Part shown: piece after piece, positions 1 to 16,591 of the stretch | Numbering within the stretch: position 1 is the stretch's first letter | Layout: the number at the start of each line of letters is the position of its first letter | From: a candidate division WOR-3 bacterium | GTDB taxonomy: Bacteria; Hydrothermota; Hydrothermia; Hydrothermales; Hydrothermaceae | Direction of reading: 5' to 3' | DNA: 26,462 bases | NCBI GenBank assembly: GCA_039803745.1 | Contig: JBDRZD010000026.1 | Location: forward strand, 1 to 26,462 | Position numbers and translations under genes: made by a program | The notes under the pieces: model-generated | Databases searched by the model: none | Seen by the model: the letters and a program-made list of their open reading frames with translations, nothing else | Told to the model about the DNA's origin: nothing

Positions 1-1821
1 TTTTAAAAAATTAAGAATTTTATCTTTATACTTTTCTGGCTCTTTATAAATCTCTTTTTCTTTTTTATTTATAATATTTTCAATTTCATCAATTAAATTT
101 CTCAAAATTTTTCTTTTTTCAAGAAAATCTCTTTCATATTCTTCGTCATGGCATTCATTACAAAAATTTTCTTCTGGCTTTTTTATACTTTCTTTCTTTT
201 TATGGCAATCAAGACAACTTACCTCTGCTTCCTTCATAACATCAGGGGAAAAATCTTTAAATTTCCCATTATATATTTCATATTGGATTTTATGGCAGTT
301 TTCACAATTTTGAATTTTTTTATGATGGCAGGAATTGCATTCATATGAATTTTTATAAGTTAGACCGTGAATTTTCTTTGAATGGCAATCCTCACAGGAA
401 TTTATAAGAAGATGGGAATAGTGATTAAAGGTTTTATTTTTAACATTTACTTCCTGATGTTCTATACCAAAATGGCAGGAAAGACATTCAGGATCTTTTT
501 CAAAAAGCCTTTCAAGGGAAATTTTTTTTATATTTGAATCAAAAAATTTTCTTTCACCCTTTTCTAATTCTTCTTCAATTCTGTTTAAAATTAAATGGGC
601 ATATTTTATATTATGCAAGCCATTACTTTTGTCACTTTTAATAAATTCAAAATTCTGTTTTATTAAATCTGTATTTAAAGGAAGATTCAGGATATCTGAA
701 ATTTTAATAATTCTTTCTACCCTTTCATCCATCCTTTTAACTCTGTCCCTTATCCCTTTCTGCCAGATTACTGCAAGTTTATCATAACCTTTTCCATGGC
801 AATCATTACAAACCTGTGGGGTTGAAATGGTAAATATAGACTTATGTCCAAAAACCAATTTCTCCTCTTTAATCTGATGACAACCTATACATGAAACACC
901 TGATAAAAACATTGGGTCAGGAGTTACTGGCACATCTATTGCTCCTACACCTATATAAAGTCTTTCTTGAAGTGTATGTTTTCCACCATGGCATTCCTCG
1001 CATTTTGGAGAAAGGGCATAAGCCATTTCAATTTTTTTGTGTTTTATTTCACTATGACACCATTCACATTTTATCTTCTCTTTTGTTACATGCACATTAT
1101 GTAAGAATATGTGGTCTTTATATCCTATCTCTCTTTCAACATGGCATTGAGAACACTTCTCTTGAACAACTTCGCCTCTTCCTTCTGTTACATAAATATG
1201 GCATGTCCTGCACCCAATCTTTGCCTCTTCATATTTTGTATGGGAAAATTTAATACCCCTTACAAGGATAACCTCCTTTGGTGGACCATGACAACCCTCA
1301 CATCCTGCAACAGGTTCACTTGCCTCTTTACCTATAAAATGGCATATTATACATACATCTTTATTTACAGCAGTATGTTCTCCCTGAACAAGTTCTGAAT
1401 GGCAGGATTGACATGCAAGATTTACTCCCCTTATTTCTTTATCATAGTGTTTAACATGCTTGAATTTTATTCTTTTTGCAAATAAAACTTCACCTATTTC
1501 AAGTTCCTCTTTAACATGACATTTTTTACAATTTTTATCATCTATTTTTGAATGAAGCCTTACATGATACACTCCTGCAAAATATCTTATCATCTCAGCA
1601 AGCAATCTAAACTTACCTTCCATGTAACCGAAAAATCCTTTTCTATAATGACAATCTATACAATTAACATTGTTGTGGCTTGAAGAAAGCCAGTTTTCAT
1701 AATAGGATTTCATTATATGACAGGAATTACAGAAAGATGGGTTATCTGAAACTCTTATAAAAAGATAAAAGAAATACAAAATTAAAATAGTTAGTATTGG
1801 AAAAATTATTTTCTTTTTCAT
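1..1821 (-). CDS. Membrane-anchored NapC/NrfH-type multiheme cytochrome c with at least 18 CxxCH motifs; 3' end runs off the window
   Basis: Not in the ORF track. I translated it by hand from ATG 1821 (ATGA overlap with the stop at 1818); it is open for 607 codons to position 1. It begins [58 protein letters not shown] (N-terminal TM helix, CxxCHxM, WxxSxH). 18 CxxCH counted, plus a helical SNGLHNIKY segment. Collinear paralog of 5248..6930. Confidence 0.93.
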
Positions 1822-2678
1822 TCTTTTTTATTTTCCCTTTCCTTCATTATCTTCTCATATTCAAGTGGATGCTCTTTAATCATCCTTTCCTTACTTATTT
1901 TACCTGTGAAAATTGTCGGATTAAATGGAAAAACTTCTGGATTGAAATGGGCATTATACCAGTGCCATATTATTATTGCAAGGGTTGCAAGAAGTGCTTC
2001 ATCAGAATGTGCTTCCCTTGCTATATCAAGAAAAAATTTTGGAATAATTCCAAGAAAAAAATTATGTAACCACATAAGTGTTCCTGATACAATCATTATA
2101 ACCATTCCCCAGTAAACTGCCCAATAATCAAATTTTTCTATATAAGAATACCTTCCAAATTTCGGCTTTTCCTTTGTAAGACCCAAAAAATATTTTATAT
2201 TTTGAAAAAAATCAAGAAAATCTTTTTTCCTTGGCAAAAGTTCTTTAAATTCTCTTCTTCCTTCTTTTGTAAAAAGATATATTGTATGCCATATTGCAAC
2301 TAAAATTAAAAGTGCTGCACCAATTCTATGTAAAATTCTTGATACCTGTATCCCACCTGTTATTTTAAAATAAATTTCTGCCCATCCTGTTTCGTGAAAT
2401 TTTATTGGTAAACCTGTTATTATTAAAATTAAACAACCTAATGCAAGGATAAAGTGCTGTAATCTAACATTTAAACTGAATCTTATGAAATATTCCTCTT
2501 CCTCTTTCTTTATTTTTTCTCTTTCTTTTTTAATTCTCTTAATTTCCTTTTCTATCTCTTTTCTATACCTTTCTTTGATTTCCTCCTTTATTCTTTTTTT
2601 TATCTCTTCCTTTAATTCAATTCCATCCTTTTCAATTTCTTTTATTATTTCTTCATAAATTTTTTCTTCTTCTTTCAT
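1818..2678 (-). CDS. FdnI/HydC-family (CbcL-like) membrane cytochrome b with a charged N-terminal extension
   Basis: RFS..RLQH start of TM1, four TM helices, His in LQH, ILHR, IWHT, AHSDEA and WHWYNAH, plus the motif [17 protein letters not shown]. The first ~62 aa are almost entirely E/K/R/I. Confidence 0.88.
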
Positions 2679-3703
2679 TTTTTAAACTTTCTTATACCTC
2701 TTCCTGTCAAATCAAGAATTATATGAACAATGAGGCCAAAAATCACAAGAAATGTAAACCATTTAAAAAAGTTATAAACATAATAAACAATGCCTGCCTC
2801 TTTTTCTTCAGGAATTATGTGATATTTTCCCTTTGCAACATTTTGAGAAGCACCGGGATGACATTTACCACATGTTGCTGCAAGATTTTTTGGATGAATT
2901 GGTGATTTTGGGTCAGTAGAGGGAAGGATATCATGATATCCATGGCAGGAAACACAATTTGCTGCTTTAACAACACCATATTCAAGTGCAATCCCGTGAA
3001 AACTTTCTTTAAAGGCTTCAACCTGTTTTACAGGAACACCATACTTTTTCATTATTGTTATATCTGCATGACACTTTTCACATGTACCAGTCACATTCTT
3101 TGGATTCAAAGTAGAACGGGGGTCCTCTGGTGGCAAAATGTCATGCTCTTTATGGCAATCATTACAAACTGCTGTTTCTAAAACCCCTTTTAAAAGAGCT
3201 TTACCATGAATTGATTTAATATATTCTTCTTTAACAAGTTTATGACATTTACCACAGGTATTTGGTATATTTTTCTTATTTATTGTGGATAGTGAATCAC
3301 CTGGATGTCTTATTGAATGAGTTGTATGACAATCAATACAATCAGGTGCAATTTTACCTTTCTCTTTCGCTCTTCCATGGACACTCTCTTTATATTTCTC
3401 AGGCATTTCCTTAACAGGGGCACCAACTACATTTCCTGCATAATGACATTGAAGGCAATGTATCTTTTTCGGTTTCCTTAAATGGGGAATTGTTATGACA
3501 TCATAATGGCATTGAGTACATAACATATCTTTATGAACACTTTGATAATATTCAGAAGGAGAAACAAAGAGAGGTCTTTCAATTCCATCCTCAATTATCT
3601 TATAATCCTCCTTACCATGGCATAAAAAGCATCTTCTATTTTTTGTAACTATATCCTGAGAGTAGAGATTAAAAATGAAAATTAAAGTTAAAAGTTTTTT
3701 CAT
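2675..3703 (-). CDS. Nonaheme cytochrome c with signal peptide and C-terminal TM anchor (resembles the CbcL periplasmic domain)
   Basis: 9 CxxCH; three repeats of SxHG..CxxCHxxH.I..S..N..TCxKCH; C-terminal hydrophobic helix ending VHIILDL. Confidence 0.9.
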
Positions 3704-4380
3704 TCTTCCCCCTTTTTCATCTCCTCATATTCAAGAAAATGCTCCTCTTTTAACCATTCCTCAGAAACATATCCATCCCAGAAACTTAAATTTATTGGAA
3801 AATTTGAAGGTGTTAAATGGATTTCGTATATATGCCAGAAAACTATAAAGATTAAAATGAGTGTTCCTCCCCATCCATGAATTCCATATACAAGGTCAAA
3901 TAACCATTTTGGAATTAAAACTAAAAAATAGTTATGCCACCACATAACAATCCCTGTTATTATCATAAGAAAAACGAATAGGAAAAATACCCAGTATTGG
4001 AGTTTTTCTTTAAATCCATACCTTTTTATCTTTGGTTTCTCTTCTATTTTTCCAAAATTATAAAGGATGGTTTTAAAATAATTTGAGAAATCATCTTTTT
4101 CAAATAAAAAACTTTTAAACTCCTTTCTACCTTCTTTTGTAAATATTATATAGATTAAATGATATAAGGCTGTGAATATCAATAAAAAGGCTGATAGTCT
4201 GTGAAGTGCCCCCCTTGCCTCAAAACCTCCTTCAAGGAAAATCAAGAATTTTCCAAACCATGAATCAGAAAATCTTAAAGCAATCCCTGAAATTATAAGA
4301 AGAAAAACAGAAACCATTAAAAGAAAATGCTGTATTCTCCAGTTTAATGAAAATCTCAAAATGTTTCTTTTACCCTTCAT
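3700..4380 (-). CDS. FdnI/HydC-family membrane cytochrome b, paralog of 1818..2678
   Basis: RFSLNWRIQH, ALHRL, LYHL, EKLQYW, GIHG and FWHIYEIH; C-terminal WLKEEHFLEYEE matches [11 protein letters not shown] of the paralog. Confidence 0.87.
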   Translation of the reverse strand: MKGKRNILRFSLNWRIQHFLLMVSVFLLIISGIALRFSDSWFGKFLIFLEGGFEARGALHRLSAFLLIFTALYHLIYIIFTKEGRKEFKSFLFEKDDFSNYFKTILYNFGKIEEKPKIKRYGFKEKLQYWVFFLFVFLMIITGIVMWWHNYFLVLIPKWLFDLVYGIHGWGGTLILIFIVFWHIYEIHLTPSNFPINLSFWDGYVSEEWLKEEHFLEYEEMKKGEE

Positions 4381-5354
4381 TTTCTTCTCCTTCTTAAATC
4401 AAGAATTATATGAAGTAAAAACATAAAGCCTAAAAAACTTATAAAACAAATATAAAAGACCCTGACAACATAAACACCAAAAGAAACTTCCTTTTTTGCT
4501 TCAACATGGATTTTAACATCCTTTAATTTCCATTCCTTATCTTTATGGCATTTACCACAGGTAATAGTAAGATTTGCTGGATGTATTGAACTTTCAGGGT
4601 TTGAAGATGGTAAAATTTTGTGATATTCATGGCAAGAGATACAATTTGCAGTATGCAATTCACCTTTATATAAAAATATACCATGATAACTTTTTTTATA
4701 AGTTGAAAAACGTCTTGGTGGAATTCCATAAAGGGAAGTAATCCTTGTATTTTCATGACATTTTGCGCAAGTCTCAGGGATTTTTTTTGGAGAAACAGGA
4801 GATTCAGGAGATAAAGGAGAAAGTATTTTATGTTCATAATGGCAATCTATGCAGGTAGGAGCATCTTTAATCCCTTTTTTAATTCCCTCAAAATGAATAC
4901 TTCCTTTATATTCTTCTCCCTCTTTTTTATGACAGGAAGAACATTTTTCCTGCACAAGAATCTTACCACCATAAACTTTAAATGAAATTGTTTTATGCTT
5001 TCCATGGCATTCAAAACATTTTAACTTATTAAAGTGGACACTTTTCTCAAAATTCATCACAACCTCAGGATGACAGGAAGAACAAGAAGATTTTTCAATT
5101 TTTAAGGGATGAGGAACTTTTTCAAACTCGCTATGGCAATCATTACAATTTAATAAAAGGTGAGGAGAAATAGAAAGAGAATCTTTAATAAGATTTGAAT
5201 GGCACTTTAAACAATCACCGTATAAATTTAAATTAAATATAAAAAGATTAATCGTGGCAATCTTTACAAACTTTGTAATCCACCTCAATTTTTTTATGGC
5301 AATCAGAACATTTAAATTCATTTTCTTCAATATGCAATTTATGAGAAAAATCAC
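4377..5354 (-). CDS. Nonaheme cytochrome c with C-terminal TM anchor, paralog of 2675..3703; true start probably downstream of 5354 (TTG at 5288)
   Basis: 9 CxxCH, the same repeat units and the C-terminus LHIILDL. The track start overlaps the upstream gene by 107 bp, whereas TTG 5288 gives a signal-like MRWITKFVKIATINLFIFNLNLYG. Confidence 0.88.
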   Translation of the reverse strand: MIFLINCILKKMNLNVLIAIKKLRWITKFVKIATINLFIFNLNLYGDCLKCHSNLIKDSLSISPHLLLNCNDCHSEFEKVPHPLKIEKSSCSSCHPEVVMNFEKSVHFNKLKCFECHGKHKTISFKVYGGKILVQEKCSSCHKKEGEEYKGSIHFEGIKKGIKDAPTCIDCHYEHKILSPLSPESPVSPKKIPETCAKCHENTRITSLYGIPPRRFSTYKKSYHGIFLYKGELHTANCISCHEYHKILPSSNPESSIHPANLTITCGKCHKDKEWKLKDVKIHVEAKKEVSFGVYVVRVFYICFISFLGFMFLLHIILDLRRRRK

Positions 5355-6930
5355 CTATTTTTGTTTTAAGAATTTTATTATAAACATTTTTATGACAGAG
5401 AATGCAATCTTTTCTAACCTTTTCTTTGTGATGGCAGGAAGTGCAACCCTTTTCATCAAATTTCAAAACCTCACCTTTCGGTTTTTCATAATGAGGTCTA
5501 TGACATTCTGTGCAGTTTAAATTCTCTTCATCTAAATGGGTTCTATGGGAAAAACTTATATTAAAAATTAAACCCCTTTTTTCTTCAATACCCTGATGAC
5601 ATCTCATACATATTCTTCTCTCAGGTCTATATTTTATCCACGGCAATGGAAAATACTTATCTATTTTTCTCTCTTTTAAATCCTCATTTACAAATTCAAT
5701 TGCCTTTTCAAGTAAAACCTGAGAATAATCAATGTTATGAATTGCATATCCTTTTTTAACAAGTTCAAAATTAAAGAGAGCATCATTTAATTTTTGGGAA
5801 TTCTTTGGAAGAATTTTTTTTGCCTCTTCTATTATTTTTTCAGTCTTTTTTATCTTATCTTTTATACTCTCTTCCCACATTTTATAGATGTTATAATAAG
5901 AAGCACCATGACAATTCATACAGGAAAAAGCACCTGATGTTTTTATTCCATCACCTTCCATAAAATGACACCCCTCACATCTAACACCTGCTATATACAT
6001 TGCAGATGGCATTGGCGGAATTCCTTTGCCTCCTATTCCCATATAAAGGTCCTTTTGTGGAGAATGCCCTTTTAAGTGGCATGTAGAACAGGGAGTTTTT
6101 ACAACTGCTTCAATATCCCTTGGCTTTCCATGATATATCTCCTGGTGGCAGGCTATGCATTCAACTTTATGATCTGTAATATGGGTTTCATGCATATATT
6201 CAATTTCATCATATTTTTCAATTCTTTCTGGCTCATTATGACAGGAAAAACATCTTTCTTTTGGAACCTCACCATTTCCTTCAACAGAATGGGAATGACA
6301 AAAGATGCAATCCATCCTGTATCTTTCAACATCTTTATGATCAAATTCAAAACCTGCTTCAAAAATTTTTTTCTCAGGTGCTCCATGGCATAACTTACAA
6401 TCTGCTATATCCTCACCTATTCTTTCAACTTCCTTAAAGTGACATAAAAAACAGGTTGTTTCTGTAACTTTTATATGTGCTCCCTGAACAATCTGGGAAT
6501 GGCATGAAGTGCATCTTAACTTTTTCTTTCTTCTCATCTCGGTTAAATGGGGAGTATGGTCAAATAAAACATTTTTAAATAAAGTTTTGCCTGCAAGGAG
6601 CCTTTTGTCATGACACCTTAAACATGCTTCATCCTCAATTTCAGTCCATGGATTTGTTGAATATGTTCCTGTTATGTATCTTGCAACCATCGCAAGTGCC
6701 TCATATTTTTTCCTTATTTCAGAAGTAATGCCTGGTGGAATATGACATTCAACACAGGAAACTTCATTATGGGAAGATGTTTCCCAGGATTTATAATAGG
6801 GTTTCATAACATGACATATATTCCCACAGAATTTGGGATGAGAGGTAATTTGAATTAAAAGAAAAAATAAAACAACTCCTAAAACTATAACAAAAGAAGA
6901 TAATATAAAGATTATCTCTACTTTCCTCAT
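5248..6930 (-). CDS. Membrane-anchored NapC/NrfH-type 18-heme cytochrome c (17 CxxCH plus 1 CxxxCH)
   Basis: N-terminal TM helix, FCGNICHVM, SWETSSH, helical GYAIHNIDY segment, and C-terminal cytochrome c3/c7-like FSHxxH...CxxCH units. Confidence 0.92.
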   Translation of the reverse strand: MRKVEIIFILSSFVIVLGVVLFFLLIQITSHPKFCGNICHVMKPYYKSWETSSHNEVSCVECHIPPGITSEIRKKYEALAMVARYITGTYSTNPWTEIEDEACLRCHDKRLLAGKTLFKNVLFDHTPHLTEMRRKKKLRCTSCHSQIVQGAHIKVTETTCFLCHFKEVERIGEDIADCKLCHGAPEKKIFEAGFEFDHKDVERYRMDCIFCHSHSVEGNGEVPKERCFSCHNEPERIEKYDEIEYMHETHITDHKVECIACHQEIYHGKPRDIEAVVKTPCSTCHLKGHSPQKDLYMGIGGKGIPPMPSAMYIAGVRCEGCHFMEGDGIKTSGAFSCMNCHGASYYNIYKMWEESIKDKIKKTEKIIEEAKKILPKNSQKLNDALFNFELVKKGYAIHNIDYSQVLLEKAIEFVNEDLKERKIDKYFPLPWIKYRPERRICMRCHQGIEEKRGLIFNISFSHRTHLDEENLNCTECHRPHYEKPKGEVLKFDEKGCTSCHHKEKVRKDCILCHKNVYNKILKTKIGDFSHKLHIEENEFKCSDCHKKIEVDYKVCKDCHD

Positions 6931-8072
6931 CTTTTTCTAATATATATTATAAGGGAAATTGTAAATAAAATGAAAAGCCATAAAAACGGTAAAAATAATT
7001 TTCTGCTTTCAAAAAGTTTTTTTCTCCTTATCCCTTCCCTTTGGACTTCCTGTGCTATTGACTTTGATTTTATAGCAAAACTTTTTATTTCTTCCAGTTT
7101 CAGGGAATGGGAAACAGGTCCTGCTTCTAAAAGATATGTTTTTGCCTCTTCTATTCTTCCCAAAAAATCTTCTACGCTTACAGGAATTTTCTTTAAATCT
7201 TCAATTATTTCTTCTGTTTTTAATATTTCCATTTGGGTTGTTATAAATAGTGTATATATTTCTTCTGCTATTTTATAATTTTTTGAATCCTTTGAATGGC
7301 ATAAAAGGCATTTTTCTTTCCAAAGCTTGTGTGAAGCTTTTTTCACATAATGATTTTCATGGCATATCTCGCATTCTCCATAACCAAGTTCCTTCCAGAA
7401 TTCAGCATGTTTACTTTTCAAAAAATATTCCCTTGTCTTTATATGACATTTACCACAAACTTTCTCAATTTCTCCAATTCCAGCAGGTGTTGCACCATGT
7501 GTTCCATGGCAATCTTTACATGTTGGTGAATTTGTATTTCCCTCTCTTAATTTTTGAGCATGAATTCCCAAATTATATTCAAGAACAACATCAGAAGAAA
7601 TATTATATTTTTTCATCATGTTAAAATCACTATGACATACTCCGCATGTGCGGGGCAAGTTAAGAATATTTGTTCTTGAATTATTATCAAATGAACTTAA
7701 AATTTCATGATGCCCATGACAATCAGTGCATAGTGCTACTTCTTCATTTCCCCTTTTAAAGGCTTCTCCATGTTCTGAGGTATAATAAAGGATTTCCTGA
7801 TCAAAGGGAATACCATAAGATTTCATAATTTTTGGCGAGCTATGACATTTTGAACAGATTTTTATTATCTCTTTTCTTTTTGGTTTACCTATAAATCCAT
7901 CATGATGGGCTTTTTTAATATCAATAGCATTCAAGTCTCCACCGTGACAGGCATCACATTTAACTTTTTCTTTATAATGAATACTTTTTGTATATTCATT
8001 TTTGACTTCTGAATGACATATAATACATCCTTCATTTTGAGAAATAAGCATCAAAAAAATAAAAAGTTTCAT
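6927..8072 (-). CDS. Nonaheme cytochrome c with helical stalk and C-terminal TM anchor
   Basis: 9 CxxCH in the first ~260 aa, then a ~95 aa helical region and a hydrophobic tail LFLPFLWLFILFTISLIIY. Confidence 0.9.
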   Translation of the reverse strand: MKLFIFLMLISQNEGCIICHSEVKNEYTKSIHYKEKVKCDACHGGDLNAIDIKKAHHDGFIGKPKRKEIIKICSKCHSSPKIMKSYGIPFDQEILYYTSEHGEAFKRGNEEVALCTDCHGHHEILSSFDNNSRTNILNLPRTCGVCHSDFNMMKKYNISSDVVLEYNLGIHAQKLREGNTNSPTCKDCHGTHGATPAGIGEIEKVCGKCHIKTREYFLKSKHAEFWKELGYGECEICHENHYVKKASHKLWKEKCLLCHSKDSKNYKIAEEIYTLFITTQMEILKTEEIIEDLKKIPVSVEDFLGRIEEAKTYLLEAGPVSHSLKLEEIKSFAIKSKSIAQEVQREGIRRKKLFESRKLFLPFLWLFILFTISLIIYIRKR

Positions 8073-8986
8073 TGTCTATAAAAACCAAAAATTCCTGTAA
8101 TTAAAATTGTAATTAAAACTATTAAAGAAATTATTAAAGAGATTTTCCTTTTATGAAGAGGTAAAGGTTTACTTTTGTCAATCCATGGTAAGATAAAAAT
8201 TAAAAGGATGGCAAGAAGAATGAATAAACCAAAGAGTGTCTTTGGCATATAAATTTTCAAAAAATAAACTGGCAAAATAAAAAGGGGCAAATATACTTTA
8301 GGAGGAGTTTTAAAGGGATTATAAATTTCAACATGTTTAAAAGGAAAAAGAATGGAAAGAGTTAAGAGGATACCTAAAAAGATAGTGAAAATAATAAATA
8401 TATCAAAAAAATAAAAGTTATGAACATTTTCTCTTTCAAATTTAAGAAAAATTAAAATTAAAATGACTATTGATAAAAATGGAATTATAAGGGAATGAAA
8501 AATATAAAATCTTATATGAACAAACTCATTTATTAAAAAGTTTCCAAAAAAGAAAGAATAAATAAAATTTAAAATTGGAATATCTCTTATTATTTCCATA
8601 ACTCTTTCAACTTTCCAGTATAAATTATTTTCCATTGGAAGCAAAATACCTGTAAAATATTCAAAAAATAAAAATAAAAGGAAAAGAAATGTAAAAACCC
8701 ATAAAAATTTATTATTTTCATAAAGTTTATAATAAAAAATTTTAACAATTTCTAAAATGGAAAAAAACAAAAGGAAATTTGCACCCCATAAATGCATATT
8801 AAAGAAATAATATCCAAATGCCACATCCCTTATTATAAAAAGTGTGCTCTCATAACCTTTTCCCATTGAGGGTATATAATAAAATAGCATAAAAAATCCT
8901 GTTAAAGCCTCAAATAAAAAATTTATTAAAATTAAAATTTCAAGAAAATATTTTTTTAAAGGGAAAAATTTATTAAAGGATAACAT
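8069..8986 (-). CDS. Divergent cytochrome b/b6 (fused PetB+PetD type) of a Rieske/cyt b complex; only the heme bL ligands are retained
   Basis: Family landmarks LTG..L..YY.P..YES, HLWGAN, FTG.LLP, RFY.FH...IP, NP..TP and LPWID. His65 and His164 are present; the partner His positions are E79 and L178/I179. Adjacent to a Rieske gene. Confidence 0.85.
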   Translation of the reverse strand: MLSFNKFFPLKKYFLEILILINFLFEALTGFFMLFYYIPSMGKGYESTLFIIRDVAFGYYFFNMHLWGANFLLFFSILEIVKIFYYKLYENNKFLWVFTFLFLLFLFFEYFTGILLPMENNLYWKVERVMEIIRDIPILNFIYSFFFGNFLINEFVHIRFYIFHSLIIPFLSIVILILIFLKFERENVHNFYFFDIFIIFTIFLGILLTLSILFPFKHVEIYNPFKTPPKVYLPLFILPVYFLKIYMPKTLFGLFILLAILLIFILPWIDKSKPLPLHKRKISLIISLIVLITILITGIFGFYRQ

Positions 8987-9392
8987 AAAATTTATCCCCT
9001 CTTTTTTCTATTTCATATCTTTTTAATGGAAAGGAAGGAGGACCTTTTAATGGATTCCCATTTAAATCAAATAATGCACCATGGCAGGGACAATTTATCA
9101 TTCTTTCTTCTTTTTTATATTCAAGTATGCATTTCATATGGGTGCAAACTGCTGATATTGCAATGAAACCTGTTTCAGTTTTTATAAAAAATAAAGGCTC
9201 CTTTAAATGGGGGATAAACTTATATTCCCATGGCGCAAGTTCGTTTGCCCCTTTAATTTCTATTTCCTTTTCAAATTCTTCTCTCTCAATCTTTGGTAAT
9301 TTTATAAATGAAAGGATTGAACCGATAATTCCTAAAAACCATGCAAAAATTGTTCCTTTAAAAATATAATTTAAAAAATCCCTCCTTTTCAT
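8973..9392 (-). CDS. Rieske [2Fe-2S] protein (QcrA/PetC-like), Tat-anchored
   Basis: MKRRDFL Tat motif plus TM helix; box I CTHMKC, box II CPCHG, and GPP..PL. Confidence 0.93.
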   Translation of the reverse strand: MKRRDFLNYIFKGTIFAWFLGIIGSILSFIKLPKIEREEFEKEIEIKGANELAPWEYKFIPHLKEPLFFIKTETGFIAISAVCTHMKCILEYKKEERMINCPCHGALFDLNGNPLKGPPSFPLKRYEIEKRGDKFYVIL

Positions 9393-10570
9393 ACTCTCCT
9401 TTCTTTTTCATAAGGAGGTAAAAGCCATATCAAAAAAAGAAGAATTAAAAATGGTAAAAATAGTAATCCCATACTTGCATATATCCCCTCTCTTCCTATA
9501 AGCCCCAATTTATATATTGTTAAACCTCTTAAACTTTTTGAAAAAAGTTGACCTCCTATAACAACATTCCATCTTGTTGCAAAAATACCAATTAAAACCA
9601 TAACACTCACTAAAAAATATGTGAACTTCTTTGCACTATCAGATGAACCAAATATTCTTATATAACCTAAAAAAAGAATTGGTAAAATTGCTCCTATTAG
9701 TATTTGAAATATAAAAAGGGAAATAAATAGTTTTCCTTTTATAAGAATTTGAAACATATCAAAGAACTCTTCTGCTTCATAAATTCTTTGAACAAGATCA
9801 AGCATCTCAAGGGAAAAATCTATTATTATTGAATATAAAAGATATTTTGCCATTGCATCAAGACAGGGAATTGAGGGCTCTTTCCCTTTCAAATAATTCA
9901 AAACCATGTAAATGAAAATGACAAGGGCAATACCTGAAACCATTGCTGAAAAAAGGAAAATAACTGGCATTATAACACTTGACCACCAAGGATTTGCTTT
10001 AACAGAACCAAATATGAATCCAACATATCCATGCAAAAGGATTGCAGAAGGTATACCTATTACTGCAATAAATTTACTGAACCTTTTATCAAAATCTTCT
10101 ATTTCTTCATTTATCTCTTTCACACCAAGTGTCAAAATTTTATAAATAAATCCTTTTATTCCTTTATTTATTTTTGAAAATTCAATTATCTCTTTTCTAT
10201 ATTCAAGCCATATTTCTATTAATAAAATTGCCATTAAATACCATATATAAACAAATCCAAAAACTGCCATAGCAGATGAAAGATGAGGGGTTAAAAATAT
10301 CTCAAAACCCCTGAAAGGATGGGTAATATGGAAAACAAGTGGGAGCGGAGCACAAATCAAAAAAGCAAGGGCAGTTAAAAGGGAAAGCCTGTAAGTCGGT
10401 CTTACATCCCTTATTTCAAAAACTTTTTCTAAGGAAGCAAGAATGAATGCACCTGCAACAAGCCCTGTTATATATGGATAAAGAACAATTAATATACTCC
10501 ATCTTAGTTCTATTTCATTTGGATATATAAAACCCTCTATACTTCTTAAAACCTCATACAAATGTTCCAT
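9389..10570 (-). CDS. NrfD/PsrC-family membrane quinone-interacting subunit (CbcU-like)
   Basis: W..LIVLYPYITGLVAG, H..HP.R, TP..SSAM, RWNVVIGGQ; about 10 hydrophobic segments; follows an NrfC-like gene. Confidence 0.9.
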   Translation of the reverse strand: MEHLYEVLRSIEGFIYPNEIELRWSILIVLYPYITGLVAGAFILASLEKVFEIRDVRPTYRLSLLTALAFLICAPLPLVFHITHPFRGFEIFLTPHLSSAMAVFGFVYIWYLMAILLIEIWLEYRKEIIEFSKINKGIKGFIYKILTLGVKEINEEIEDFDKRFSKFIAVIGIPSAILLHGYVGFIFGSVKANPWWSSVIMPVIFLFSAMVSGIALVIFIYMVLNYLKGKEPSIPCLDAMAKYLLYSIIIDFSLEMLDLVQRIYEAEEFFDMFQILIKGKLFISLFIFQILIGAILPILFLGYIRIFGSSDSAKKFTYFLVSVMVLIGIFATRWNVVIGGQLFSKSLRGLTIYKLGLIGREGIYASMGLLFLPFLILLFLIWLLPPYEKERRV

Positions 10571-10575
10571 TTCTA

Positions 10576-11307
10576 TTATCTTACCTCCATATCCATATCC
10601 TTATAATAAACTTTTGGATGGGTTCTCAAATGGGGTTTTAATACCTGAAGTGGATAACTTTTTAAAAATTTATAAACAGGACTATCAGGATCATCTATCT
10701 TACCAAAAATTCTTGCATTTTGTGGGCACACAAGAACACAAACAGGTAAAAGCCCCTTTTTTATTCTATGATAACAGAATGTGCATTTATCAGGTGTTTT
10801 TGTTTCTGGATGAAAATACCTTGCACCATATGGACATGCCTGAATACAATAACCACAACCTATACAATATTTCTTATCAACAAGAACAACACCATCATCT
10901 GTTTCATAAGTTGCCCCTACAGGACAAACTTGAACACATGGGGCTTCTTCACATTGATTACAGAGTTTTGGAACAAAAAAACTCTTTGCTATCTTTTTTG
11001 GAGGATTAATCTTTTTAAATCCATTAAATCCGCCATCAGGTGATTCAACATAAACCTCACCATCCTCAAAGATAATATATCTTTCTATCCATGTCCTAAA
11101 ATAAAATGGATACTTTGGAACATTATTTTCCTCTTTGCAAGCCCTTACACACTCTCCACATCCAATACATTTACTTATATCAATTACCATTCCAAATTTA
11201 TTTTTACCATATCTAAAAGTTTGAACAATAAAATTTAAAAGTTCATTTTTAAAAAAGGGAGTTAAAATAAAAAACTTTAATTTATTTATAAAATCTCTTC
11301 TTGTCAT
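10576..11307 (-). CDS. NrfC/PsrB-family 4x[4Fe-4S] protein (CbcT-like), Tat signal
   Basis: MTRRDF; Cys groups CIGCGECVRAC, CNQCEEAPCVQVCP, CIGCGYCIQACP and CTFC...CVLVCP. Confidence 0.94.
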   Translation of the reverse strand: MTRRDFINKLKFFILTPFFKNELLNFIVQTFRYGKNKFGMVIDISKCIGCGECVRACKEENNVPKYPFYFRTWIERYIIFEDGEVYVESPDGGFNGFKKINPPKKIAKSFFVPKLCNQCEEAPCVQVCPVGATYETDDGVVLVDKKYCIGCGYCIQACPYGARYFHPETKTPDKCTFCYHRIKKGLLPVCVLVCPQNARIFGKIDDPDSPVYKFLKSYPLQVLKPHLRTHPKVYYKDMDMEVR

Positions 11308-11774
11308 TTTATAGAAGGATTATGAGGTATATGGCATTCAATACATTCTTCATCGGGATTATGTTCTTTCTCGTTAACCTGTGGAAAAGATGAAGGTCTT
11401 GATTCAATTTCAAAATGGCAAATACCACAAGAATTTCTTTTCATCTCTTTTAAAGGTTTATTTTCATCAGGATTTTCTATGTGGGCTGAAAGTGCCCCAT
11501 GACATACCTGACAATTTAAACTCTTGTGTGAATAAGAAATAACTTTTTTATACTCTTCTTCATGACAACTTTCACATTCCTTTATATCAGCATATTTTGT
11601 AGGCAAATTTATATTATCAGCAATTGAATCAGCCCTGTAATGCCCAAATTTTCCAAAACTCTTTGGAATCAAAAATGGTCTTAATATTATAAAAATTATC
11701 AAAATTCCAAAATAAATTCCAAAAAGCCTTTTTATATGAGAATACTTAGAGATTTCCTTTTTCCCCTCTTTCAT
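11304..11774 (-). CDS. Membrane-anchored tetraheme cytochrome c (CbcS-like)
   Basis: N-terminal TM helix, PKSFGKFGHYRA, 4 CxxCH (CESCH, CQVCH, CGICH, CIECH); directly upstream of the NrfC/NrfD pair. Confidence 0.88.
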   Translation of the reverse strand: MKEGKKEISKYSHIKRLFGIYFGILIIFIILRPFLIPKSFGKFGHYRADSIADNINLPTKYADIKECESCHEEEYKKVISYSHKSLNCQVCHGALSAHIENPDENKPLKEMKRNSCGICHFEIESRPSSFPQVNEKEHNPDEECIECHIPHNPSIK

Positions 11775-12811
11775 ATTCCAAAAATTACATCAAATCCTTC
11801 TTCTTTCAATTTTAAGATCCAAACCTTTTTCTTTTGAACATACAATTTTTTAATGGAATTGTTTAAATTTTCCCTGTTATAAAATCTCAGATTCTCAAAA
11901 CATTTTGATAAAAAATGGACTGATTCATAAGAGAGGGCAGAAAGAAAATTTGGTTTTTTACCATATTCTATTTCAAATTCATTTATAAAATCTCTATATT
12001 CTTCTATTTCTATATCAGGATGGAATGGTGAAGATATAAAAACTTTAATTTCCTTTTTGGAATAATTTTTAAGTTCTTTTACAACCTCTTCAGAATACCA
12101 TCCATCCCCTCCTAAAAATATGGGTGTAAAATTTTCGCCTATACATTTTTTAACAAAAAAAATTGCTTCCTCCGCATAAAGGGGTGCAAATATTCCGGAA
12201 GGATTAACCTTTTTTAAATAAGAAATTTTTGAAATAATATTCTCCCTATCAAATTCTTCAACTGCTAATATTTTTCCACCCATTTCTTGAATAGATTTTT
12301 TAAACTCTTCAAAAAGTACTTTTGAATAAGGCTCATCCTTTTTATATATTATTGCAAATTTATCAATTCCATAATATTCTATTGCAAATTTTGCAATAGC
12401 CTTTGCTTGATCTATATCAGAATAGGTCATACTATGGATATAATTTTTGTCCTTTGTAATAAAAGGAGAAGTTGCTGTAGGCGTTAGGAGTGGAATTTTA
12501 TTTTCTTCACATAAAGAAGAAGCATATAGGGCAAATTTTGAAATAAGTGGACCTATAATACATAAAAAATTTTCATCCTTTAAAATTTCCTCAATTTTTA
12601 TTTTTAAATTTTCTGAATCGGATTTAAAATCAAATATTTCAATTTCAAAGGGGAGTTTTAAATTATTTTTCTTAAAAAAATCAACTCCTAAAAGAGCCTC
12701 ATTTGCGTAATTGGAATATTTACCTGTTAATTCAAAAAGAATTGCAACTTTTAATTCCCTCTTTTCCTTACATAAAAGAAAGAGAAAAAAAAATATTAAA
12801 AATTTCCTCAT
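11771..12811 (-). CDS. LivJ/LivK-like (type I periplasmic-binding fold) putative lipoprotein
   Basis: Signal ending LLC; LTG, IIGPLIS, PLLTPTAT, QAKAIAKFA, LGGDGW. Confidence 0.85.
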   Translation of the reverse strand: MRKFLIFFFLFLLCKEKRELKVAILFELTGKYSNYANEALLGVDFFKKNNLKLPFEIEIFDFKSDSENLKIKIEEILKDENFLCIIGPLISKFALYASSLCEENKIPLLTPTATSPFITKDKNYIHSMTYSDIDQAKAIAKFAIEYYGIDKFAIIYKKDEPYSKVLFEEFKKSIQEMGGKILAVEEFDRENIISKISYLKKVNPSGIFAPLYAEEAIFFVKKCIGENFTPIFLGGDGWYSEEVVKELKNYSKKEIKVFISSPFHPDIEIEEYRDFINEFEIEYGKKPNFLSALSYESVHFLSKCFENLRFYNRENLNNSIKKLYVQKKKVWILKLKEEGFDVIFGI

Positions 12812-13917
12812 TCAGGTGTCATTGTGAGCACATATTTAAAACCTTCTGGTGAAACTTCTAATATAAAAACATCCCTTAAAGGGTCTTTACCTCTTTTAAA
12901 AGAAATATTTCCTGTTACACCTTGATAATCTATCTCTTTTAAATTTTTTAAAAATTCCATCCTTTCGGGTTTTTCCATCTTTTTAAGTACTTCATAAACT
13001 ATTCCAAGAGCATCATAACAAAGGGCGGATGTAAATTCAGGCTCACTTTTATATTTTTCCTTATATTTCCTGATAAATTCTTTTGTCTTTTCATAGGGCA
13101 AAAAGGGAGTAAAGGGTGAGGAAATGTATGCTTTTACATTTTCAAATATATCTTTATTTTTGCTTATAAGTTCATAGGAATACCATCCATCCCCTCCAAC
13201 AAAAACAGGATTAAATTTTACTTCAAGACACTCTTTTAAAATAAGAGGAACAAAATTCGCATATACTGGAAGAAATAGAACCTCTGGATTGAAAGAACTT
13301 ATCTTATCTATTTTTGAATAAAATATTGTATCATTTTCAAAGAAGTATTCAGATGTAAGAATTTCTCCTCCAAAATTTTTAAAGGAAATTTCAAAATTTC
13401 TTGATAAAACTTCTGAATATGGGTCATTTGCTTCATATAAAATGGCAACCTTTGTTTTTTTAAGTTCTTTATAAATAAATTTTGCAAGAAGACATCCCTG
13501 GATTGAATCAGTAAAAGTTGTTCTGAATACAAAATCACTCATTTTTGTAACAAGTGGATGGGTGGCAGTTGGTGAGATTAAAGGTAAGAAATATTTTTGC
13601 GAAATTGATGCAGCAACAAAAACATTTTTTGAAACAAGAGGACCTACAACGCACAAAACTTCTTTATCCTCTGCTAAAGCGTTTATTAATTCCTTTGTTT
13701 TTGCTGGCAAACCCTTGTTATCTTTTATTAGAATTACAAGATTTCTTCCAAAAAATTTTTCACCCTTTTTTTCTTCAAGAAATATGTTTATTCCATTCAA
13801 AGCATTTTTTCCATAAATTGAAGCAGGACCTTCAAGAGGAATTACAACACCAATCTTAATACTTGGTGCCTTGCATGAAAGAAAAATCAGAAAAATAAAT
13901 ACTATTAATTTTTTCAT
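12808..13917 (-). CDS. LivJ/LivK-like (type I periplasmic-binding fold) lipoprotein
   Basis: Lipobox FLSC; IKIGVVIPLEG, ISPTATHP, VFRTTFTDSIQG, GGDGW, YDA, GVTGNISF. Paralog of 11771..12811. Confidence 0.88.
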   Translation of the reverse strand: MKKLIVFIFLIFLSCKAPSIKIGVVIPLEGPASIYGKNALNGINIFLEEKKGEKFFGRNLVILIKDNKGLPAKTKELINALAEDKEVLCVVGPLVSKNVFVAASISQKYFLPLISPTATHPLVTKMSDFVFRTTFTDSIQGCLLAKFIYKELKKTKVAILYEANDPYSEVLSRNFEISFKNFGGEILTSEYFFENDTIFYSKIDKISSFNPEVLFLPVYANFVPLILKECLEVKFNPVFVGGDGWYSYELISKNKDIFENVKAYISSPFTPFLPYEKTKEFIRKYKEKYKSEPEFTSALCYDALGIVYEVLKKMEKPERMEFLKNLKEIDYQGVTGNISFKRGKDPLRDVFILEVSPEGFKYVLTMTPE

Positions 13918-13952
13918 AATTGTTTTATTATATTAAAAATTATTCTTTGTTT

Positions 13953-14462
13953 TTATTTTTCTTTTGGAACTGGATGCTTTATTTTCTCATAAAATTCTTC
14001 AAACTTGAATTCCTTATATGTGGGGCTATTTTCATTATGGCACTCTATGCAATTCTTTTCTGTAGGTCTTATAAGACCATAATCTTCTGGTTTTGCCTCA
14101 CCACTATAAATTTTCTTCATTACACTCATTGCCTTATATTCAGAACCCGGTCCATGACAATCTTCACAACCTATTCCATTTTCATTATCCTTTCCATTAT
14201 GGCAAGAAAGACATTTTTCAGATTTCTGTGGATCTTCTATTCCCATTTTCTTTGCAATTTCTTTTGATTTTTCAGATGCGAGAGTTTCAAATGCCTTTGA
14301 ATGGTTTGATTTTTCCCATATTTCCCATTGGCTTCCCTTCTTTTCACCCTTGTGGCATACTTTACATTTTTCAGACCCTACATACTCAAACTTCTTTTCC
14401 TCTTTTTTCTCCTGTGCCATACAGAATGTTATTCCTATTACAAGTATAAGTAATTTTTTCAT
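13953..14462 (-). CDS. Soluble periplasmic tetraheme cytochrome c (c554/c552-like)
   Basis: Sec signal, YVGSEKCKVCH, WEKSNHSKAF, 4 CxxCH including GCEDCHGPGS; AGGAGG RBS at 14467-14472. Confidence 0.9.
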   Translation of the reverse strand: MKKLLILVIGITFCMAQEKKEEKKFEYVGSEKCKVCHKGEKKGSQWEIWEKSNHSKAFETLASEKSKEIAKKMGIEDPQKSEKCLSCHNGKDNENGIGCEDCHGPGSEYKAMSVMKKIYSGEAKPEDYGLIRPTEKNCIECHNENSPTYKEFKFEEFYEKIKHPVPKEK

Positions 14463-14474
14463 ATAACCTCCTTT

Positions 14475-15626
14475 TTAAAAACAAAAAAATTTTAAAGTTT
14501 TTAAAAATAAAAAGTCAAACAATCTATTTTTTATGATTAAAAAAATTCTAACTGGATAATAAAGAAAAAAAAGGGGCTCGGGAAGTAAAATAAAATTCAA
14601 AACATTTTCATCAGGATTTAAAAGGGAAAGTGTATGATATATTTTCTGAGGGAATGACTCAATAAAAATTAATGGTAACAAATCCTTTTTAAATCCGTAA
14701 GCCTCTTTTTCTTTTAAAACAAAATCTTTTAAAAAAATTGGTAAATTTTTGAATTTTAAAAAACTTGGTAAATCCGTTTCAAAAATAAAATTTGATAAAG
14801 TTAAACTAAGTTTTACAATTTTTAAAATGTGAAGTATTTTAGAAATTTCATAAACTTTATAAAAATCAATCTCTTTTTTAAATTTCAAAATGAATTTATG
14901 AATATCAAAAAGAAATTTTAAAAGACTGTATTTATGTAAAAATGAATGGATTGAAAGAAGAATTATTTCCCACTCCTTTGAAAAGATATAAATTTTTAAA
15001 CCATTTAAATCAAGATTTTCAAATTCAAAAAATTTCTCAAAATTTTTAATCTTTTTAAATCTTTTTGGAAGAATATCAAAATGAATTTCAACTAAAAAAT
15101 TTTCTTTATAGAGCCTGTATTCATTATATAATCTGAAATGGATTTTTTTTAAAAAGTTTTCCCTTTTTTCATCCAAATCAAAATAAAAACCTTCATTTTT
15201 TAAAATATCAATTGCTTTAAATAAATCCCTTTCAAAAACAAATATATCAATATCATTAAAACTCCTTGAAAATAAATCTTCATAAACTCTTTCAGAAAGC
15301 AAAAAACCCCTTAGAGGGATTGCAATTATATTATTTTCCATTAATTTTTTTAATATATAAATTGTTCTTTCCTTTAAAAATAAAACTCTATCTTTATTTT
15401 TTTCATAAAGAATTTCAAGAATTTTAAAAAAACTTTCAGGAATTAATTCTTTCCTATTTAAAAAAAATTTATAAAAAATTGGATAAATATCTTCACTTAT
15501 CAAAATATTTAAAAATTTTTCCCAATCAATTCTTCCATTTTTTTCAATTTTTTCTTTTCTTAAAATCTCAGTTATTAAACTTTTCTCATAGGAGAAATTA
15601 AAATCTTTGAGTGATCTCAAGCCCAT
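14475..15626 (-). CDS. Nucleotidyltransferase family protein (NTP_transf_5-like, PqqD/RiPP-associated)
   Basis: PLRG...Y....RSFNDIDIFV (LKG/DxD signature), VEIH, IH..H...LKFLFDI; context with PqqD and kinase. Confidence 0.82.
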   Translation of the reverse strand: MGLRSLKDFNFSYEKSLITEILRKEKIEKNGRIDWEKFLNILISEDIYPIFYKFFLNRKELIPESFFKILEILYEKNKDRVLFLKERTIYILKKLMENNIIAIPLRGFLLSERVYEDLFSRSFNDIDIFVFERDLFKAIDILKNEGFYFDLDEKRENFLKKIHFRLYNEYRLYKENFLVEIHFDILPKRFKKIKNFEKFFEFENLDLNGLKIYIFSKEWEIILLSIHSFLHKYSLLKFLFDIHKFILKFKKEIDFYKVYEISKILHILKIVKLSLTLSNFIFETDLPSFLKFKNLPIFLKDFVLKEKEAYGFKKDLLPLIFIESFPQKIYHTLSLLNPDENVLNFILLPEPLFFLYYPVRIFLIIKNRLFDFLFLKTLKFFCF

Positions 15627-16347
15627 TTTGATACAAAAATTCTATATCTTTCCAGAAAATTTTATAAAAAGGCACTTCCTCTACAATTCTCACTAAATCC
15701 CTTAATCCTTTATTTTTTATATATTCCTTTCTATTTATACAAATTGCTGAAAGGTATAAAAAGGCTTTCTTTTTATCCATTAATGTTATCTTATTGATTT
15801 TTGAAGGTATTGGAAATATAAAACATTTTAAAGGGAAAAAATTATCTTTTATTATTTTTTTTGGAAAAACAAAAAATTCTTCAAAATTTTCATCTTCAAT
15901 TGTTTCTTCATCATCCACATATTTTTTAAAATCCCTATGAAGTTTTATTGGCTGGGGATAGGGAAATGAAAAAAATTTATTTTTTATAATAAGAGGTGAA
16001 ATATCATCACTTAAATAAAATAAATTTTTTGAAATTAAAAATGCTAATAGACTTTTACCAACCTTTGTCCTTCCCCCTATTAAAAAAGCCTCTTTACCAT
16101 TTGAAATACTTGATGCATGGAATATTAAAAAATCGTTTATTTTTGGAAATATTTTTTCTCTTATATAAAAATCAAAATAAAGTAAGAGAAAAAAAGGAGA
16201 TTTTTTATAATTTAAATCAAATTTAAAATCACTTTTACCTTTAAAATCTTTAAAGTATTTATAATATTTTTTAAAAATAAAAACTTTATCTCCTTCTTTA
16301 TCTTGAATTTCAATCCTTTTTAATAATATTTTTTTTAATGAATTCAT
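15598..16347 (-). CDS. HPr kinase-related P-loop kinase
   Basis: FHASS, Walker A GRTKVGKS, YLSDD; lacks the N-terminal domain of true HprK. Confidence 0.82.
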   Translation of the reverse strand: MNSLKKILLKRIEIQDKEGDKVFIFKKYYKYFKDFKGKSDFKFDLNYKKSPFFLLLYFDFYIREKIFPKINDFLIFHASSISNGKEAFLIGGRTKVGKSLLAFLISKNLFYLSDDISPLIIKNKFFSFPYPQPIKLHRDFKKYVDDEETIEDENFEEFFVFPKKIIKDNFFPLKCFIFPIPSKINKITLMDKKKAFLYLSAICINRKEYIKNKGLRDLVRIVEEVPFYKIFWKDIEFLYQNGLEITQRF

Positions 16348-16591
16348 TAATTATCTTTATAGTATCCTGTGAAATTTTTTCCTTTTCAACATTTAATGTT
16401 TCAGAAATTATATCAATCATCTCCTTTATTGTAAAATTTCCATCACACATATTAAGTATTACACTTGCACTATTATTTAATAAAAAAACCTCATCATTTA
16501 ATGGATCATAGACCACGCTTCCATCCTCTATATTTTCTATTTTTAAATCTTCTCTTTTTTGGGGCTTAAAATCTAAAGAAATTTCTTTCAA
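16310..16591 (-). CDS. PqqD family protein / stand-alone RiPP recognition element
   Basis: 93 aa; P......IEDGSVVYDP....FLLNNSASVILNMCDG..TI.E.....D....I.EF....II. Confidence 0.9.
   Translation of the reverse strand: MKEISLDFKPQKREDLKIENIEDGSVVYDPLNDEVFLLNNSASVILNMCDGNFTIKEMIDIISETLNVEKEKISQDTIKIINEFIKKNIIKKD

Follow-up and report, generated by a model that had tools for sequence, protein, structure and literature searches.

Introduction

In Geobacter, menaquinol is oxidised by separate Cbc clusters. The CbcL protein consists of nine c-type hemes and an FdnI-like cytochrome b (PMC9129911; PMC6295460), members of the wider CbcL/MtrH/MtoC family carry from 3 to 23 hemes and occur in iron reducers as well as iron oxidisers (PMC6295460), and Cbc4 is composed of a tetraheme cytochrome with NrfC- and NrfD-type subunits (10.1101/2025.04.14.648717; 10.1101/2021.04.15.440034). 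On the side of electron input, bifurcation by HdrA and a quinone site in QmoC have been described (PMC3333476). Here we analyse a stretch of 26,462 nucleotides (the window; positions 1 to 26,462 of contig JBDRZD010000026.1, assembly GCA_039803745.1) from a hot-spring-type bacterium of candidate division WOR-3, in which a run of genes resembling these systems occupies positions 1-14462 and continues beyond the end of the contig. To judge from its sequence, the run probably carries electrons from H2 via membrane quinones into eight multiheme cytochromes; no exit for these electrons was found in the source genome, though close relatives have one.

WOR-3 bacteria are treated as fermentative or microaerobic in the papers examined, and the sulfur reduction of the isolate is left unexplained in the available passages of PMC12285271. 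A survey of 181 genomes records mvhADG-hdrABC in 34 WOR-3 metagenome-assembled genomes, and the available passages of its main text contain neither 'qmo' nor 'extracellular electron' (PMC12542636); 'multiheme' is absent from the available text of PMC11696919, and further background came from PMC12133095. In the literature covered, which comprised passages and listings, few subscription papers and no supplements, we found no description of the run, of a bacterial clade of cytochromes b without bH ligands or of multiheme respiration in WOR-3. The supplements of two WOR-3 surveys (PMC12542636; PMC12285271) could list genes of the run.

Results

A conserved run of multiheme cytochromes and quinone-site modules

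The window is an entire contig (C26) of a 1.67-Mb genome (G000) that is 93% complete. Positions 1-14462 hold 15 open reading frames, all on the minus strand, and the seven cytochromes among them contain 18, 9, 9, 17 (plus one CxxxCH, CGNICH), 9, 4 and 4 CxxCH motifs, giving 70 + 1 = 71 heme motifs compared with a total of 0.52 in shuffled versions of the same proteins. Four-nucleotide ATGA overlaps join the genes at 10 of the 14 junctions, an enrichment (binomial P ~8e-4) over the genome-wide rate of 316 in 1142 co-oriented pairs (28%); shared orientation (82% of 1400 neighbouring gene pairs) and close packing (gaps of 40 nt or less in 86%) are generic in this genome. Domain searches recovered two NapC/NirT N-terminal domains, two cytochromes b561, an NrfC/NrfD pair, a Rieske protein and a cytochrome b, while 2 of the 15 genes encode LivK-type binding proteins and are not redox genes. 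The first-pass annotation had described the same 15 co-oriented genes, 71 heme motifs and ten overlaps, two NapC/NrfH-type anchors, two FdnI-type cytochromes b, NrfC/NrfD and Rieske/cytochrome b pairs and the lack of a CxxCK nitrite reductase; our recount and domain searches agree with it, and CxxCK was seen in none of the window proteins scanned.

The run is real, conserved and under purifying selection. The ratio of nonsynonymous to synonymous substitution (dN/dS) against a genome of the same genus (G001) lies between 0.07 and 0.31 in all 20 genes tested, with the highest value in the petB-type cytochrome b. Pseudogene decay is ruled out by these ratios, and no broken gene was seen. Recent horizontal import of the cluster is unsupported, as its GC content is that of the genome (0.297 each). 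A scan for promoters and terminators returned chance-level numbers (120 promoters against 108.6 expected; 6 terminators against 9.3 expected).

The run continues into a hydrogenase segment

The gene run passes the left end of the contig, where the 18-heme cytochrome MHC18b (1..1821, minus strand, as are all genes of the run) is cut off; the truncated gene loses no heme motifs, because full-length orthologues also carry 18. In G001 and in G004, a member of the same family, which are the only two family genomes whose retrieved contigs span the region, the cytochrome order continues on one contig. MHC18b is followed there by a fused 16-heme + cytochrome b561 protein, a PlsY-like protein, an HpnB/CruG-like GT2 glycosyltransferase, QmoC, HdrA, MvhD, MvhG and MvhA, with the maturation protease HycI ending the run in G004 and listed also for the continuation in the source genome. 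In the latter these genes sit on contigs C64 and C76, which share an exact overlap of 127 nt, and C26, C64 and C76 are collinear with G001, about 230 nt being missing between C26 and C64. The whole run measures 25.5-25.9 kb and encodes eight multiheme cytochromes with 87 heme motifs (counted in G001). In G004 no gap from the first cytochrome to MvhA exceeds 40 nt, save one slot that holds an uncalled 9-heme gene.

Full-length QmoC is present in 5/5 genomes of the family and in one other (a bin with 8% contamination) among 41 genomes of the class; its best match, over the full length, is the qmoC model, at 166 bits against a cut-off of 300. HdrA has 1019 amino acids here and 1020 in relatives. 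The Mvh subunits match VhuA, VhuG and VhuD best, at scores below the archaeal cut-offs, and the large subunit has Ni-binding motifs at both ends, so that MvhA, MvhG and MvhD together with HdrA have the make-up of a group 3c (Mvh) [NiFe] hydrogenase. In a search without a positive control (no control genome matched), aprA was not found in 5/5 genomes. With its attached hydrogenase, MvhDGA-HdrA-QmoC reads, from its gene content, as an H2:quinone unit rather than a donor to adenosine-5'-phosphosulfate (APS) reductase. The earlier description of the cluster as free of a catalytic subunit is consequently true of the window but false for the whole run, where a [NiFe] large subunit lies downstream with HdrA and QmoC. 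This enzyme is not a standard terminal reductase, being cytoplasmic and probably an electron donor.

Two further Hdr loci were observed in the source genome: HdrCBA-MvhD with a cytoplasmic FdhA (C2:31112-37306) and HdrABC beside a 2-oxoacid:ferredoxin oxidoreductase (C10:743-4553).

CbcL-type and Cbc4-type modules

Two pairs of genes each combine a nonaheme cytochrome c bearing a C-terminal transmembrane (TM) helix with an FdnI-type cytochrome b561: 4377..5354 with 3700..4380 in the first pair, and 2675..3703 with 1818..2678 in the second. Each pair matches the fused 16-heme CbcL-type protein of C64 from end to end, and the four His ligands are kept in all three b561 domains, two split and one fused. 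Among the matches listed, 117 of the 120 longer homologues are c+b561 fusions. Within the run only the C64 gene encodes a single polypeptide, as CbcL does; the window pairs consist of two genes each, with an ATGA overlap that is kept in relatives. By architecture, the two window pairs are split forms of CbcL. A PDB sequence search with the fused protein gave no match. We also observed, at 5248-5354, that the start codon of the 9-heme gene 4377-5354 is uncertain: the family genomes inspected show no ATG close to the stop of the upstream gene, within which a TTG or ATT is the probable start.

A membrane-anchored tetraheme cytochrome c (11304..11774; four CxxCH, N-terminal TM helix 18-36), an NrfC/TtrB/DsrO-family Fe-S protein with a twin-arginine signal (10576..11307; below all NCBIfam equivalog cut-offs) and an NrfD-family quinone-interacting membrane protein (9389..10570; PF03916, E 1e-36) are adjacent and CbcS-, CbcT- and CbcU-like, respectively. 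This is the composition of Cbc4 (CbcSTU). The proposal that Geobacter-like inner-membrane modules are concatenated here is therefore borne out by the alignment of the split pairs to the fused CbcL-type protein and by the composition of the trio. The suggestion that they form one supercomplex is doubtful, as synteny in the sister family shows the modules in another order or at separate loci.

A Rieske/cytochrome b pair without bH ligands

Alignment of the petB/petD-type cytochrome b (8069..8986) gives the ligand pattern H-E-H-I in place of H-H-H-H, such that both bL histidines are kept and both bH histidines are lost (to Glu and Ile), and LPLF stands at the aligned PEWY position, with loss of the PEWY Glu. 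By this ligand pattern, the protein has lost one of its two hemes; the first-pass annotation had overlooked the missing bH ligands. Loss of the bH ligands and of the PEWY Glu means that no textbook Q cycle would operate, and, by Q-cycle logic, a cytochrome b with bL only cannot move charge across the membrane. In the Rieske protein (8973..9392) domain search and ligand alignment show the ligands intact (CTHMKC and CPCH, within CTHxxC/CPCHGA), whereas they are lost in the orthologues of G005, G007 and G008, which belong to the sister family. A second, canonical Rieske/cytochrome b pair is present in loci retrieved from G005 and G008 and was not found in the source genome. The constant neighbour of the pair is a nonaheme cytochrome c (6927..8072; assigned by motif count and synteny) with a C-terminal helical region and a TM anchor, which would be the analogue of cytochrome c1. 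The Geobacter Cbc6/Ext models stayed below their cut-offs (ExtP, 92 bits against 290; ExtN and ExtO, 20-22 against 200).

The helix-B bH His is missing in 10 of the 11 copies that lie upstream of a 9-heme/MHC18a pair, the copy in G014 keeping all four His. It is likewise missing in 14 of the 15 best cluster representatives, 13 of which have Arg, while 121 of the next 135 have four His; the Arg forms fall into one group in a 75-sequence FastTree phylogeny. On these alignments, a natural clade of bH-less cytochromes b spans several phyla and is associated with 9- and 18-heme partners. In the passages available, a survey of cytochrome b regarded the four His as invariable and removed sequences that deviated, Pyrobaculum being the only one named as lacking a bH ligand (PMC4122944).

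18-heme cytochromes and a c554-like tetraheme

MHC18a (5248..6930; motif count, model and profile match) and MHC18b, which is 35% identical to it, share an NrfH-like anchor domain, an OcwA/NrfA-like helical-bundle core and c7-like C-terminal repeats. The structural model of MHC18a has a confidence (pLDDT) of 77, and its profile matches OcwA with an E-value of 1.2e-23 over positions 212-437, chiefly in the last hemes and the helical bundle. In a Foldseek search the model had no match at E<=0.001; most of the top-ranked folds were OcwA or nitrite/sulfite reductases. At the position that we take to correspond to the quinol-site acid of NapC/NrfH, Glu stands in 8/8 MHC18b copies and Met (Met81) in 116/116 MHC18a rows, the latter being sequences chosen as best matches to MHC18a. 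Seventeen non-motif His of MHC18a are invariant or nearly so and, with Met42 and Met81, are enough to close all 18 hemes. Its homologues number 2713 at E<=1e-20, with loci in Eisenbacteria, Fischerbacteria, Planctomycetota and Nitrospirota; within the phylum they occur in only 14 of 251 genomes, all in the same class. The c554-like periplasmic tetraheme (13953..14462; PF13435, E 5e-11) has 2 non-motif His for 4 hemes, and open or non-His axial sites are therefore possible.

Related forms were observed in other phyla. Cytochromes with 42 hemes in about 1080 amino acids lie beside the Rieske/cytochrome b/9-heme/18-heme module in Eisenbacteria (L062:1365-4610; L063:3753-6989), and short MHC18 forms with 11 hemes immediately precede hdrC/hdrB(/hdrA) in Nitrospirota and Planctomycetota (L065:9992-12718; L066:419-11272), one such 11-heme form being fused to a large multi-TM domain.

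Search for an electron exit

In a six-frame motif scan of the source genome, multiheme proteins outside the window numbered only two: one encoded by the C64 gene, the other an octaheme cytochrome on C52 that resembles hydroxylamine oxidoreductase (HAO). The latter (L002:5607-6809) is secreted and lies beside heavy-metal ATPases, with orthologues in G002-G005. MtrB/PioB was found in 0/41 genomes of the class, a result that says little because the conduit porins of WOR-3 match no NCBIfam family. In G004, G005, G009 and family f8, a beta-barrel-like gene is flanked by an 11/12-heme cytochrome and 6-8-heme lipoproteins. The conduit cytochrome occurs in 9/41 genomes of the class, including the sister genus, at separate loci, and a beta-barrel-like gene was adjacent in the loci inspected. 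As a single-query porin search missed the porin of G004, a six-sequence profile and a search for the conduit cytochrome were used instead. A heuristic list of beta-barrels contains many ordinary outer-membrane candidates. This WOR-3 conduit family is an observation in its own right: its beta-barrel-like protein has about 360-410 amino acids and no NCBIfam match, often with an ArsR-like regulator nearby (L125:5938-9057, G004:C6; L131:3150-7859, G005:C27; L083; L080-L082). In other phyla, homologous modules adjoin DmsE/MtrB-like or GSU2204-like genes.

Porin-cytochrome systems for extracellular electron transfer of the Mtr/Pcc kind, in which an outer-membrane porin joins periplasmic and surface cytochromes, were found in the relatives named above and not in the 93%-complete source genome. 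The proposal of metal or electrode respiration is unsupported for this genome, in which no MtrB porin, no WOR-3-type conduit porin and no extra multiheme protein bar the octaheme was found. Extension of the run to the left, which the first-pass annotation had proposed, did yield a catalytic subunit (the cytoplasmic hydrogenase), and the genome has CcmF- and CcmE-like genes (by motif), but no MtrB-type porin came to light; BamA, HemB (a marker of heme synthesis) and electron-transferring flavoprotein are also encoded.

G003 and G004 encode a PhsA-like molybdoenzyme of the twin-arginine translocation (Tat) type with Fe-S and diheme subunits and no membrane anchor, which was not found in the source genome. 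These Tat molybdoenzyme loci are L130:113-19064 (G003:C25) and L126:9660-13159 (G004:C1); G003 also has NarGHJI, again not found in the source genome. The only members of the molybdoenzyme family in the latter are the cytoplasmic FdhA and a NuoG-like protein. A bd oxidase is encoded beside peroxiredoxin- and rubrerythrin-like genes.

Other genes of the window

Two probable lipoproteins of the LivK type (LivK/LivJ-type, 12808..13917, and a second LivK-type protein, 11771..12811; both PF13458) lie inside the redox run at 11771-13917 without an adjacent permease. LivK-type paralogues recur beside cytochrome genes in G005 and G008, and an Atlas search with the protein returned generic binding-protein families only. 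Directly upstream of the run, after a gap of 12 nt, nucleotidyltransferase (NTP_transf_5), HprK-related kinase and PqqD-family genes occupy 14475-16591 (minus strand). This cassette resembles the accessory set of lasso peptides and other ribosomally synthesised and post-translationally modified peptides; no precursor was identified, and the cassette is kept in G003 and G004.

Discussion

Our best reading is that the run forms the inner-membrane and periplasmic half of a menaquinone-based anaerobic respiratory chain, a hub for menaquinol oxidation resembling that of Geobacter, with its end acceptors encoded at other loci, and we give it a probability of about 0.55. From gene content, gene order, cofactor ligands and purifying selection, we infer the following electron path. 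Cytoplasmic MvhAGD would oxidise H2 and pass electrons to the two-flavin HdrA and on to membrane QmoC, which would reduce menaquinone; HdrA probably bifurcates to ferredoxin, and catabolic reductant may also enter menaquinone through MvhAGD-HdrA-QmoC. Menaquinol would then be reoxidised by parallel modules, namely the three CbcL-type bc cytochromes, the Cbc4-type trio, the NapC-type MHC18b and the bL-only Rieske/cytochrome b. The b561 modules could be electrogenic, while the bL-only pair would move no charge across the membrane and would pass electrons outward only, to its 9- and 18-heme partners. The 87 c-type hemes would constitute a periplasmic network feeding end modules that differ between genomes, for which the porin-cytochrome conduits, the anchorless Tat molybdoenzyme and the HAO-like octaheme are candidates. 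Since only the octaheme was found in the source genome, the likeliest acceptor there is not a solid but something soluble that can enter the periplasm, such as sulfur species, a chelated metal, humic quinones or N-oxides.

Several results weigh against the respiratory hub. The conduit cytochrome was found in 0/4 genomes of the genus by the search that found it in 9/41 of the class, a six-porin profile gave nothing significant in the source genome (best E 0.023), no periplasmic molybdoenzyme or heme-copper oxidase was found there, and the HAO-like octaheme was not found in G001. No menaquinone head-group pathway was detected in the source genome (MqnA/D, MqnC and MenD were searched). Two lipid genes (PlsY-like and GT2) stand between the cytochromes and the Qmo/Mvh genes, the sister family keeps the cytochrome modules rearranged and not adjacent to Qmo/Mvh, and long co-oriented runs are common in this genome. 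Sequence does not settle which way the electrons run, since CbcL types serve both reducers and oxidisers of iron (PMC6295460). Finally, the only WOR-3 isolate, which may or may not carry the run, reduced S0 and O2 but not Fe(III), according to the passages available (PMC12285271).

MenA-like and MenG-like genes, both below their cut-offs, are present in the source genome, and their presence without head-group genes suggests salvage of a naphthoquinone head group; menaquinone itself is assumed. The MenA-like prenyltransferase is fused to an extra N-terminal domain (L073:1366-2745, C53).

The hub may be more specialised still. In this extension, which we regard as doubtful, the run would be a complete H2-to-periplasm chain with two undescribed devices, a bifurcating MvhDGA-HdrA-QmoC unit without APS reductase and a one-heme Rieske/cytochrome b. 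The second device would split the electrons of quinol on the periplasmic side without a Q cycle, the Rieske protein passing one to the 9-heme cytochrome (high-potential) and bL the other to the Met-ligated 18-heme cytochrome (low-potential). If so, the chain could account for the reduction of sulfur, or of other soluble acceptors of low potential, by WOR-3 thermophiles in a genus without conduits.

Among the alternatives, the one that survives best, though it is still unlikely, is a self-contained terminal reductase: nitrite, hydroxylamine or a sulfur compound would be reduced within the run itself, at MHC18a/b or at the c554-like tetraheme. OcwA, which has open hemes and weak nitrite and hydroxylamine activity (PMC6703420), provides a precedent, and both the profile match of MHC18a to it and the reductases leading the fold matches point the same way. 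The tetraheme with its two spare His is also consistent with catalysis, and such a function would explain why a genus without conduits keeps the run. However, no CxxCK was seen in the window proteins scanned, the His and Met ligands of MHC18a suffice for its 18 hemes, no fold match reached E 0.001 and the similarity to OcwA is mainly that of the last hemes and helical bundle.

It is quite improbable that electrons flow inward, from partner cells, Fe(II) or sulfide to menaquinone and on through QmoC-HdrA-Mvh with reduced ferredoxin to H2 or reductant; group 3c hydrogenases are reversible, but the step from menaquinol to H2 is strongly uphill by established potentials. CbcL/MtoC-type proteins of Fe(II) oxidisers (PMC6295460) and the menaquinol confurcation proposed for Qmo (PMC3333476) would accommodate this direction, yet no entry conduit was found in the genus and the lineage is described as heterotrophic (PMC12285271). 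About as improbable is a capacitor, in which the heme network of this genus would serve mainly to hold electrons in anoxia and, once O2 is available, release them by way of the quinones to the bd oxidase. The position of that oxidase beside peroxiredoxin- and rubrerythrin-like genes, the lack of any heme-copper oxidase or conduit found and 87 hemes without an evident exit would fit; storage, however, needs no six kinds of membrane module under purifying selection and would be costly for a 1.7-Mb genome. Least probable is a conglomerate of unrelated modules, which in this genus would be a relic of conduit loss or would have its conduit missing from incomplete bins: the interleaved binding-protein and lipid genes, the shuffling of modules between families, the greater loss of cytochrome b ligands in this genus at the highest dN/dS (0.31), bins that are 67-93% complete and the single-query miss in G004 speak for it, but no gene is broken, dN/dS nowhere exceeds 0.31, and the conduit cytochrome is missing from all four genus genomes against nine others that have it, with a homology-independent motif scan of the source genome also negative.

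With the respiratory hub as the preferred reading, the run and the conduits of close relatives point to cytochrome-based anaerobic respiration in one thermophilic class of WOR-3. The bH-less clade is relevant to the question of what function a Rieske/cytochrome b has when no Q cycle operates, and both the clade and the Qmo-type unit, wired to a hydrogenase instead of sulfate reduction, are bounded and testable objects.

Comparison with known systems

Every module of the run has a known relative. NrfH, NapC and CymA share the NrfH-like anchor domain with the MHC18 proteins, and OcwA shares the C-terminal hemes and three-helix bundle; MHC18, by contrast, combines 18 hemes, a single TM helix and c7-like repeats in one fusion protein, for which no solved or named equivalent was found. 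Its architecture is not that of ImcH (3 TM helices, 7 hemes), and, unlike in NrfHA, the window holds no CxxCK pentaheme NrfA partner. As in CbcL (Cbc1) of Geobacter sulfurreducens and the CbcL/MtrH/MtoC family, a multiheme c domain precedes a diheme b domain of the FdnI type, and the window pairs have nine hemes like CbcL; the run differs in bringing together three such paralogues, two of which are divided into c and b genes. The likeness is one of architecture and not of alignment to GSU0274. Cbc4 (CbcSTU) has in common with our trio an anchored tetraheme, a 4Fe-4S protein and an integral membrane subunit without a catalytic subunit; here the trio is embedded in a larger run, and the likeness is one of composition, not of phylogeny. 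The Rieske protein, cytochrome b and anchored cytochrome c follow the operon order of bc1, b6f and Geobacter Cbc3 and Cbc6/ExtNOP, in contrast to which the bH ligands and the PEWY Glu are lost. Finally, QmoABC of sulfate reducers and MvhADG-HdrABC of methanogens share with this locus the QmoC-type HdrC/cytochrome b fusion, the HdrA flavoprotein and MvhD/G/A, whereas here a single two-flavin HdrA of 1019 amino acids replaces QmoA and QmoB, the unit has no HdrB, and a hydrogenase is attached.

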